From IMG/VR virus record IMGVR_UViG_646311923_000012: DNA of 64,000 nucleotides, one strand, 5' to 3'. Positions within the stretch are counted from its first letter, which is position 1, and each line of letters starts with the position of its first letter. The stretch is from a virus (Duplodnaviria > Heunggongvirae > Uroviricota > Caudoviricetes). This document shows, one piece after another, positions 39,001 to 42,000 of the stretch. A program made the position numbers.

Positions 39001-42000
39001 TTGGTGTGATTGCTCCGACCCTGCGGTCATCACCTGCTGCACAGCGCCCGAATCGGCTTTCAGCGCATACGCTGAATCGGCTTCCGGTGTCGTGCCTGCT
39101 GGCTGACCAGGATTGACGGTCTGAACATCCCCTGCCTGGTTCGTGGTGTTTTTTTTGCCATGAACCATAGTGTTTTTGTCCTGTTCCTGTTCTTTCTCCT
39201 GCTCCTGTTCCTGTTCTTGGCTTCGAAGCCCCTTAAAAGCCCCTTCGAAGCCCCTTACCGAATTTCGGCTATTATTCCGCCTCACATCCAGATGGAAATC
39301 CGTTTTATATCTGTCGTAAAACACTGACAGAAAAGCGTTTTCAGGTAATGATGCATACTCATTCCTGACACCTGCACAACGGTTATCGCCAGGCTTCAAC
39401 GTTTCCCCAACCTGCCAGGCTGCCATTTCATGGACCCAGACCATCTCTGCATCATGGTCATAGCTACAAAAACCAGCTTCAACAGCCCTTTTAAGCCCCT
39501 TTGAAGCCCCTTCCAGACCAAGCCCGGTTTCATGAGCAAGGTATAAAACTGGCAGGTAATACAAACCCAGCATATTTGCGTGAGGGGATGTCATCAGGTA
39601 AAAAGCAACAACTTGCGCTTCTGCACCCGCCTTTCTAAGTTCTCTCCCCGTTTCTCCCAGCCAGAATCGCGGAGAAACTTTTGCGTAATCACGCATGGCT
39701 ACCTCATCTGGTGCCGAACCTTCCTCCGGATATAATCTGTGGTTCCCAATCGACAGAACCAGAGGAGGTTCGACATGTATTTTTTGAAAAGCCTTTATCA
39801 GGCTCATGTATTAAATGTTGCAGCAACAAACCGCTGGTGTAACAGCCCCTAAATGCTCCCGGATTACAGAGCCTGGCTGCGCGCCGAAACATACCTTCGT
39901 CTCGACATATTGATTAGCGAACTTCAAAAAGAGACTGCATCCATTCATAACCTTCAGGGTATCGATGCTGTTCGCATTCTGGTATCGCGCCATAGTGCTC
40001 TCTCAATAATTGAAGTGCGTCATCTCTCTTTTTCTGAACTGATTTTCTTGCTTCAACCAGCTCTGGAATCAGCGAATATCCCACCGGAAGTGATCCAATA
40101 CCCACCTCATGTTGACGAGCAGTTACAAGATGTGCCATACAACCAGCGTGCTGGATTGACTCCCTGCTCAGAGGCTGAATGGGATCACTCTCTGCTGAAG
40201 AAATACCAAGATTTGTATAATCCTCAATAAGCCCGGCACACGCTTCTGCATCAGCCAGCTTTATTCTGGTTTCCTTGCGCTGTTCTCTGGCTGACAAACG
40301 CCAGAGCAGCGCATTAGCTTTATGTATCAACCACTCTGCCAGCTCCACATCAGATAAACCGCCACGCCAGATGTGCGGACTGTTTTCGTAAACGCTCAGT
40401 GTCAATTTTTTGTCATTACTCATATTTATTACCCAATTAATGCACAGCCAGAGTGTTTCCTGCCGGGCCACCACGATTCATCTGATCGAACAGAACGATC
40501 GCTGATGCAACGAAATCATCAATATCTTTCACCAGCCGTTCCTTCGTCTCTACCAACTCCCGAAAATAAGCGGAACTGTGGCTGCGCATTCGGGCCACCA
40601 GCGGAGGCGGCATCGCTTTTTCGATCGCTGGTAACAACGCCTGAATTTTTTTAACCGCATCAGGAGTGTCTTTCTCCACCCAGCGGAAAATTTTCTGAGT
40701 ATTGCGAGCCATGGCTTCCGGATGGCTGTCGTCATACAGTTCCGGGAACGTCATTCCCAGCTCGAAATACGCTTTGGTAATTTTCGCAGCCGGTACTTTT
40801 TCGCCGTCCGGATGCGCCCAGGCATTCATCGCCATGCGGATGTGTTCATGCTTGATTTTCATGAATCAACTCCGGCGCATTTGATGTGTTAACCTTACAT
40901 CCAACAGGTAAACCGTCGGTTGGGTTAGGATAAATATCTGGGCGGATTTCATGCGGGGTAACTTCCCACTTCATTAGTTGGCATAACGGAATTACCTGCT
41001 TTGGGGGAACGCCAAAGCTAAACCATTGCCAAACAGTCTGTTGAGCGACCCCCATATAACGACCTATTTCAGCCTGAGTGTATTTCTGCCTAATTTTTTC
41101 GCGAGTGCTATCTAGCATTTTGCCCTCCTCTAAAAACTATAAGCAAAGCCTACAATAAAAAACTGTATGCAATCAACAGTTTTTTATTGTGATGCTTTTA
41201 ACAGTATTTACCTGTAAAATTGAATAATGATGAGCGCCCTAGAAGTATCTATGTACAGAATCAGCAAGCTTCTTCAGGAAACTGGATGGAGCCAGGCTGA
41301 GCTTGCCCGTAGAATTGGTGTGACACAACAAACTGTTCAACAATGGGTCAGCGGTAAGGCTACACCTAAAGCCTCAAGTTTGGATAAACTGGTTGAGGTT
41401 TCAGGGCATCCATTGCATTGGTTTTTATTGCCTCCTGAAGAGTGTGAGCAAATTTTCACCCCTGACACGATGAAAATTGGTCCTCGCCAACGCGAACTGC
41501 TCCAAGCTTTTAGTGCGTTTCCTGAGGAAGACCAAGAAAAAATGCTTCAAGAAATCAAAGACAAGAAAAAATCAATGGAAGAAACCATTGCTAGGTGGCT
41601 GGCGGCACAAAAAAGCCGCCGGGCGTGACCACAGTACAAGAAGAGGAGTTATGCCATGGGTACAGCCCTTTCTCCGATAGTTTCAGAATTCGAAACTACC
41701 GAACAAGAAAACAGTTACAACGAATGGTTGCGCACTAAAGTAACGTCAAGCCTTGCAGACACTCGCCCCGCAATTCCACATGACGAGGTAATGGCTGAAA
41801 TGGAAAATCTTATTGCTCAAATTGCTGTAACTAACAAGAGCGAGTAATGTTACCCATTTTATGGCTACCGTCTGCTCGCGATGATTTGCGCCAGATCATA
41901 ACTTACATCGCCAAGGAGAACCCACCGGCAGCACGTAGACTAAAAATACGCATTGAAACATCGGTATTACCTCTATCTGAGCATCCGTACTTATATCCAC

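Follow-up and report, generated by a model that had tools for sequence, protein, structure and literature searches.

A candidate two-part iteron origin within the initiator gene of a lambdoid prophage of Escherichia coli O157:H7

Where would a lambdoid prophage start its replication, and which protein would recognize the place? This question is raised by the IMG/VR virus record IMGVR_UViG_646311923_000012 (Caudoviricetes), of which a stretch of 64,000 nucleotides (hereafter the window) was analyzed, and in particular by a replication initiator gene that sits in a lambdoid prophage of E. coli O157:H7 and carries two clusters of a 9-bp word within its own coding sequence. We think it quite likely that the two clusters are iterons bound by the N-terminal winged-helix domain encoded by the same gene, and that, with the DNA between or beside them, they make up the replication origin of the prophage. 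By analogy, the best description would be a two-part iteron origin of the kind known as oriλ in gene O, here in an uncharacterized initiator family. The elements concerned are as follows, in coordinates of the window.

38581-39696, minus strand: replication initiator gene, 371 amino acids, matched by PHROG 1701 and PHROG 3729 from residue 38 of the longer reading frame
39277-39696, minus strand: predicted N-terminal winged-helix domain (N-domain), residues 1-140, presumed reader of the iterons
39482-39512, minus strand: candidate iteron cluster A, two exact copies of AAGGGGCTT plus a degenerate third unit, encoding E62-G-A-S-K-G-L68
39226-39256, minus strand: candidate iteron cluster B, three copies of AAGGGGCTT with an 11-bp period in three frames, peptide RGFEGAFKGL
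39175-39219, minus strand: EQ-repeat linker QEQEQEQEKEQEQDK, (GAR CAR)n, directly after cluster B, the junction for swaps of the C-terminal module

Read on the coding (minus) strand, the exact 9-mer AAGGGGCTT occurs in two clusters, and its copies are always 11 bp apart within a cluster. The copies of cluster B lie at 39226-39234, 39237-39245, and 39248-39256 (gene offsets +462, +451, and +440), those of cluster A at 39504-39512 (+184) and 39493-39501 (+195), and the distance from A to B is 256 bp from start to start. The first-pass annotation had placed two clusters of roughly 11-bp repeats, about 250 bp apart, at this site, and it was right about place, period, and distance; its count of three repeats per cluster holds for B, while A has two exact copies and one weak unit (AAGGGCTGT, 39482-39490), which is not kept in homologues and therefore probably lies outside the element. 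The recurring EGA(F/S)KGL peptide that it described is seen in the translations of both clusters (LEGASKGLKRA for A and GFEGAFKGLRS for B), and the nearby EQ-repeat linker was also found. The 9-mer has the layout AAG-GGG-CTT, with palindromic arms (AAG and CTT) around a G/C center, so that flipping a unit amounts to swapping the central GGG for CCC; the inverted form is AAGCCCCTT. Six exact copies are present in the window, compared with 0.54 ± 0.76 expected from 100 dinucleotide shuffles, none of which reached six, and five of the six fall in one 290-bp stretch. With one mismatch allowed, there was no enrichment elsewhere in the 64-kb window. The sole exact copy outside the initiator gene is isolated (53936-53944, minus strand) and matches the chance expectation of 0.54 per window.

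The open reading frame (ORF) that contains the clusters has 408 codons (38581-39807, minus strand), and its residue 38 is a methionine whose ATG, at 39696, is preceded by GAGG. This is probably the true start, because the homologues, both best PHROG profiles, and the RefSeq entries of identical O157 genomes begin there. The profiles are PHROG 1701 ("DnaD-like helicase loader," E 2e-148) and PHROG 3729 ("replication initiation protein," E 8e-136), and RefSeq labels the product "DNA-binding protein" with the same ATG. A search with hmmscan, using the whole protein and the N-domain alone, found no Pfam or NCBIfam family (Pfam up to E = 10); no DnaD/DnaB_2-type Pfam domain was detected in the initiator, and the label of PHROG 1701 stems from remote-homology clustering. 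The protein consists of the N-domain, a disordered segment, the EQ linker, and a C-terminal domain that presumably recruits a partner. Every aligned member has an N-domain of ~140 residues, a short variable segment, a linker of the SQEQEQEQ type, and a variable C-domain.

An AlphaFold2 model based on a 75-sequence alignment reached a predicted local distance difference test (pLDDT) score of >90 for residues 10-140 and a mean score of 82.8, and the modeled N-domain has the topology of a canonical winged helix (helices 25-36, 50-57, and 61-73; strands 45-47, 77-80, and 85-88). The predicted fold, which matched phage "replisome organizer" proteins in BFVD, may resemble that of these proteins and of plasmid initiators. 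Cluster A encodes residues 62-68, at the beginning of helix 61-73. This helix comes third in the modeled winged-helix fold and, from the topology of the model, is presumed to be the one that recognizes DNA. The codons of cluster B correspond to residues 145-158, which are of low confidence (disordered) in the model and lie just before the EQ linker.

When solved structures were searched by sequence, only the C-terminal tail matched, weakly, to DnaT. The last 24 residues of the initiator (38584-38655, minus strand; tail …NHISEPDTEIPPGFRG) resemble the C-terminus of this host replication-restart protein (NCBIfam DnaT, E 0.002 over the last 24 positions; PDB chains 6aep, 2ru8, and 9zbt, E 0.02-0.07). 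The DnaT-like tail recurs both with a DnaC-like gene after it (loci L001 and L002) and without one (L007 and Escherichia phage Tritos). Possibly this tail is a motif for contact with DnaB/DnaC that was taken over from DnaT or is common to both proteins.

Absence of the repeats from close homologues of the gene, which by the first-pass annotation would refute the origin, is not what was seen. Homologous loci were collected from annotated phages, from one genome per species, and from IMG/VR, and 24 loci (23 homologues) were left after removal of those >95% identical. Of the 23 homologues, 22 carry the 9-mer (≤1 mismatch) at 11-bp spacing and at both of the gene positions known from the window. 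The first copy of cluster A lies at +178 to +184 and the second follows after 11 bp, in nearly all cases at +184/+195. Cluster B has two to three copies between about +430 and +490, which immediately precede the linker in every case and may be direct, inverted, or mixed in orientation; the consensus unit across loci is (C/G)G-AAGGGGCTT-C(G). The distance between the clusters varies from 243 to 291 bp and is not a multiple of one helical repeat, and strict helical phasing between A and B was thus rejected. The hosts are alpha-, beta-, and gamma-proteobacteria, including Enterobacterales and Burkholderiales (Escherichia, Shigella, Klebsiella, Acinetobacter, Ralstonia, Caldimonas, Pusillimonas, Stenotrophomonas, Methyloversatilis, Candidatus Contendobacter, and Rhizobium), and the G + C (GC) content ranges from 43%, in the Acinetobacter locus, to 67%, with the high-GC loci reaching 65-67%. 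In the 3.4-6 kb around each of the 23 loci, the 9-mer was not found outside the two clusters, save for one additional pair in Acinetobacter phage YMC/09/02/B1251 (L003). This pair, AAGCCCCTT and AACCCCCTT, 11 bp apart, is intergenic, lies 24-35 bp upstream of the initiator ATG, and is the only non-coding occurrence among the 23 loci.

This conservation is seen in the DNA and not only in the protein. The 11-bp period is not a multiple of three and the frame moves by one position per copy, and the three identical 9-mers of cluster B are read as RGF, EGAF, and KGL. In cluster A, the top codon is GAA for E62 (23/23), GGG for G63 (23/23), GCT for A64 (19/22), AAG for K66 (23/23), GGG for G67 (22/23), and CTT for L68 (20/21), that is, a top-codon fraction of 0.86-1.0, compared with a mean of 0.58 in 64 other conserved columns; the share of the commonest codon is 32-64% in seven other conserved Gly columns and 25-73% in eight conserved Leu columns. 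In eight non-redundant loci, from Shigella Stx (Shiga toxin) phage 75/02, Acinetobacter, Ralstonia, Caldimonas, Pusillimonas, Stenotrophomonas, Rhizobium, and Methyloversatilis, the coding strand of cluster B reads AAGCCCCTT, the inverted word, and the peptide EAPSKPL then replaces EGAxKGL. Of 120 homologous proteins retrieved, 112 had a linker that could be scored; cluster B was direct in 49 of these and inverted in 36, and the mixed peptides EAPSKGL and EGASKPL also occur. In cluster B, then, the DNA word appears to survive where the protein is free to change. Judging from the frame-shifting period, the frozen synonymous sites, the inversion of cluster B with its change of peptide, and the different repeats of more distant homologues described below, the repeats are under selection as DNA, and we have hardly any doubt that they serve a function at that level.

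Four homologues at 26-30% identity lack AAGGGGCTT and have other phased repeats at the same two positions. In a Desulfatiglandales locus (L017 1676-1943), the word is GAAGCCTTC with a 12-bp period, in three to four copies at +176 and five to six before the linker, and the same word with the same period is present in Sorangium in four and about nine copies (L018 1675-2067). Paraburkholderia has AAGCCTT/AAGACTT repeats (L019 1661-1955), and Pusillimonas has AACCGTT with an 11-bp period (L016 1723-1946). All four keep a QEQEQEQ linker.

The N-domain is also exchanged between phages. The C-terminal half of the window initiator (38583-39176) is 95-96% identical to that of seven phages whose N-terminal halves do not match; the similarity to phages with another N-domain ends at 39176, i.e., at the EQ linker, and homologues of the N-domain carry many unrelated C-terminal domains. 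Escherichia phage Tritos (L102) shares the C-terminal half at 96% and has an N-domain without detectable sequence similarity (hhalign found no relationship to the window N-domain, probability 0.13), which is itself a weak match to PF09681 (E 0.12). The Tritos initiator has two CGTGAC clusters of its own, 260 bp apart (2143-2181 and 2403-2441), one of which abuts an acidic DKDT-repeat linker. Because Tritos has clusters of its own with an unrelated N-domain, and because the repeats of the distant homologues change with the N-domain, the N-domain and the two clusters appear to form a single cassette that sets specificity and is exchanged as a whole, the junction being at the linker. It is tempting to go further and to see here a self-referential origin cassette of a large unnamed superfamily of phage initiators, combining a cluster in the codons of the recognition helix, a flippable cluster in a disordered tail, and a swap at the EQ linker. 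The recurrence of the two-cluster layout (~200-290 bp apart) with unrelated words, in the relatives at 26-30% identity and in Tritos, would then suggest a general design rule and not an accident of lineage. We hold this view tentatively and would put its chance somewhat below even. As a part of it, the position of cluster A in the modeled recognition helix would mean that a change in the binding site simultaneously alters the reader.

Another repeat is found between the linker and the C-domain, where four copies of ATCGGCTT(C) lie at 38956-39087 (coding strand GAAGCCGAT, peptide EADSA/KADSG) with spacings of 24, 72, and 24 bp; AAGCCGATT agrees with the inverted iteron AAGCCCCTT at 7/9 positions. 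These copies belong to the C-terminal module common with Tritos, which has GAATCGGCTT twice, and their in-frame spacing suggests that they are a peptide repeat.

Could the two clusters be something other than an origin? It is scarcely credible that they are a by-product of a needed peptide motif, EGAxKGL, or of chance low complexity, with no function of the DNA itself. E62, G63, A64, K66, G67, and L68 show little or no variation and belong to a structured helix, so that cluster A is partly conserved as protein, but a period of 11 bp changes the frame between copies, synonymous positions are frozen over hosts of 43-67% GC, cluster B keeps its word while the peptide becomes EAPSKPL, L003 has an extra pair in intergenic DNA, and six copies stand against 0.54 in the shuffles. 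The homologous loci are 50-80% identical overall, which speaks against a recent transfer of one segment. We also find it very improbable that the clusters act as RNA or single-strand hairpins formed by the palindromic arms (CTTCGAAG), as recombination joints for module exchange, or as sites for a common proteobacterial host factor. The RNA of cluster B folds better than its shuffles (-23.2 kcal/mol, z -2.9), whereas the fold of cluster A is unexceptional (z -0.4), and inversion of units is tolerated even though it turns the RNA from G-rich to C-rich. The module junction within about 50 bp of cluster B would suit recombination, but it is placed at the linker and not inside the repeats. The sharing of one 9-mer by hosts from the alpha-, beta-, and gamma-proteobacteria could speak for a conserved host protein as the reader; against this, the repeat of the distant homologues changes with the N-domain, which points to a phage protein.

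The alternative that deserves more weight, while still unlikely in our opinion, is that the repeats bind the initiator or another phage protein for regulation (autorepression, a transcriptional roadblock, or titration of the initiator) and that the true origin is elsewhere. Conservation at the DNA level and change in step with the N-domain fit any function that needs N-domain binding, no unwinding element was pinned down, and plasmid iterons often serve both initiation and autoregulation. On the other hand, no other repeat cluster or candidate origin was found in the 3.4-6 kb around the gene at the 23 loci, and N-domain and repeats are transferred jointly among phages that differ in C-domain and partner, as is expected of an origin with its specificity determinant. 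Moreover, the known precedents with such a layout are origins (PMC7466680; PMC6316719). Taking both sides together, the reader of the repeats is quite likely the N-domain of the initiator itself, and it is likely, if a little less so, that the repeats constitute the replication origin.

The surroundings of the gene are those of a lambdoid immunity and replication region, with the order cI-like, YdaS/cro-like, YdaT/cII-like, initiator, DnaC-like loader, and DUF1627 protein.

37888-38574, minus strand: DnaC-like helicase loader gene; IstB_IS21 (Pfam) 4e-19, PRK12377 and DnaC (both NCBIfam) 4.5e-140 and 1.6e-81, PHROG 50
40437-40862, minus strand: YdaT/cII-like gene
40846-41118, minus strand: YdaS/cro-like gene
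41227-41628, plus strand: cI-like helix-turn-helix repressor without a peptidase domain

The DnaC-like loader directly downstream presumably works together with the initiator. Many E. coli O157:H7 chromosomes match the N-domain region at 100% identity, and 476 of 5426 complete E. coli genomes contain a nearly identical N-domain, in nearly all cases just once. The DnaC-type loader, the peptidase-less repressor, the "ECs1072 family" neighbor, and a chromosomal position near 1.16 Mb make Sakai Sp4 the probable identity of the prophage (PMC2669165).

Between the cII-like gene and the initiator, two long ORFs overlap in antisense. The minus-strand ORF (39914-40423, 169 amino acids) matches PHROG 8304 from end to end (E 4e-120), and the plus-strand ORF (39853-40230), whose frame in the window has a TAA (39850-39852) before the ATG at 39853, corresponds to the RefSeq "ECs1072 family phage-associated protein." A RelB/RelE-type toxin-antitoxin pair follows immediately after the cI-like gene, inside the immunity region (41656-42134, plus strand), and is labeled relB and RelE/ParE in the matching O157 record of RefSeq. 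A scan of 38500-40500 for promoters and terminators gave counts at chance level; the sole terminator-like site flagged in these 2 kb, within chance expectation, is an imperfect hairpin, TGGTTCGTGG…CCATGAACCA, with a T-run at 39137-39177 on the plus strand, antisense to the initiator and just past the EQ linker.

How would such an origin work? Direct repeats about one helical turn apart (11 bp, and 12 in some relatives) whose word is specific to the N-domain lineage are a trait of iteron-type theta origins, and it is present here. After derepression, transcription from the cro-side promoter would yield the initiator, whose N-domain would bind the 9-bp sites, set on one face of the helix by the 11-bp spacing. 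Binding at both clusters might then form a nucleoprotein complex, possibly with looping of the ~245 bp between them, and a nearby, easily melted stretch would open, for which the best candidate is the following.

39292-39351, no strand assigned: candidate DNA-unwinding region between the clusters, ~35% GC (the lowest in the gene), about 40 bp away from cluster B

Finally, the C-terminal domain would recruit the phage DnaC-like loader with host DnaB. The evidence for unwinding at 39292-39351 is suggestive only: homologues have a GC dip at the corresponding place in the gene (+340 to +400), and GC content at third codon positions is lowest at codons 116-135 (0.40-0.44, compared with 0.57 overall). 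The other low-GC stretch is 39140-39199 (40% GC). The EQ linker was considered as well; it is purine-rich on the coding strand, occupies the place of the AT-rich tract of λ, and has an SQEQEQEQ motif that varies little or not at all among the 75 aligned homologues.

Several observations weigh against an origin at this place. The use of E/Q codons in the linker does not differ from the rest of the gene in six high-GC loci (31:53 compared with 62:124, p = 0.58), by which the linker was rejected as a DNA-level element or unwinding site, and it is conserved as protein. The GC dip is partly due to amino-acid composition (F, Y, K, and D codons), and a GC scan of the gene and its homologues showed no clear, distinct AT-rich tract beside the iterons. 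Neither a DnaA box (TTATCCACA with ≤1 mismatch, or TTWTNCACA) nor a consensus site for integration host factor (IHF) was found in 38900-39900, and this region has only one GATC; DnaA and IHF sites are not obligatory for phage origins. A tblastn search for plasmids that use the module as their replicon gave ten hits and revealed none; the one small record examined (32 kb, linear) is a chromosomal fragment with a prophage and thus uninformative. The homologue from Undibacterium terreum (L011), at 52% identity, is the only one without both clusters; it also lacks the otherwise invariant H39, H55, and E56, and is possibly a decaying prophage copy or a lineage with changed specificity. Sp4 was reported to be amplified only via regional replication of the adjacent Sp5, and its own origin was not seen firing (PMC2669165), a behavior that fits its non-inducible repressor. 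In the "Eru4" type of Stx phages, which has this module, the replication region was reported to encode proteins of unknown function, among them the one next to cI, and to have no known replication mechanism; neither an origin nor iterons were described (PMC8951638).

What is gained is a concrete pair of candidate origin and initiator for a replication module that is widespread and so far undescribed, matching 983 protein clusters and 446 IMG/VR stretches. Because the module includes the Eru4 type, it touches Shiga-toxin phages, whose level of replication affects the toxin dose. The anatomy is unusual and the conservation very broad: a 9-bp word is kept constant from Rhizobium to E. coli inside a coding gene, a case of dual coding in which frame shifts and unit inversions separate selection on DNA from selection on protein. 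The motif is also a handle for annotation, since two copies of AAGGGGCTT 11 bp apart, twice in one gene, could mark origins in prophages.

Literature searches for the 9-mer itself returned only primers and unrelated sequences, and searches combining iterons, prophage, and DnaC returned nothing on the window initiator family; no paper on these repeats was found, with incomplete coverage. An intragenic iteron origin is known from phage λ and appears not to have been described for this family. Shigella phage 75/02 Stx, the type phage of the Eru4 region, has a direct homologue of the initiator: its N-domain is ~75% identical in DNA sequence, its C-terminus likewise ends in an IPPGFRG tail, a DnaC-like gene is adjacent, and the same two clusters are present, B being inverted. 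Two-part origins are known from the Staphylococcus aureus pathogenicity islands (SaPIs) and the phage-inducible chromosomal islands (PICIs), in which two sets of iterons flank an AT-rich region, and from phage P4, whose ori/crr is also in two parts. The locus described here is like them in its two separated sets of short phased repeats, with a single initiator and a lower-GC stretch between. It is unlike them in that their repeats lie outside or downstream of the initiator gene and their initiators are helicases or primase-helicases, whereas the repeats of the window form part of the gene for a predicted winged-helix organizer that would need a separate loader.

In phage SPP1, oriL has direct repeats and a DNA-unwinding element within gene 38 and is bound by its product, gp38 (G38P), which resembles the window initiator in having the repeats within its own gene and recruits helicase loader and helicase via the rest of the protein (PMC6316719). 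The window protein has no match to Phage_rep_org_N (PF09681), unlike G38P, and the host range (Proteobacteria here), the repeat sequence, and the two-part arrangement differ. Moreover, SPP1 replicates from another origin as well, oriR, at a different place; the 3.4-6 kb around each locus of the window type showed no counterpart of it.

The closest parallel is oriλ, in which iterons and an AT-rich tract lie in the middle of gene O as a single array, with four iterons in λ and six in Stx phages (PMC7466680). The differences are that Phage_rep_O (PF04492) is absent from the window initiator (hmmscan up to E = 10), that there are two arrays of two to three units (9-bp core, 11-bp period) without a clear adjacent AT-rich tract, and that the partner is DnaC-like and not λ P. 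The analogy with ori-lambda in gene O proposed in the first-pass annotation is nonetheless supported by the intragenic position, the modular initiator, the DnaC-like loader downstream, and the cI/cro/cII-like switch upstream. As in λ, the initiator gene contains the tandem repeats and follows the cro/cII side of the immunity switch; the initiator, by analogy with O, would have an N-terminal domain for site binding and a C-terminal domain for recruitment, with repeats near the linker between them; and N-domain and sites are inherited as one specificity unit followed by a helicase-loader gene. The exchangeable N-domain cassette thus matches the long-standing rationale for the location of oriλ within O.

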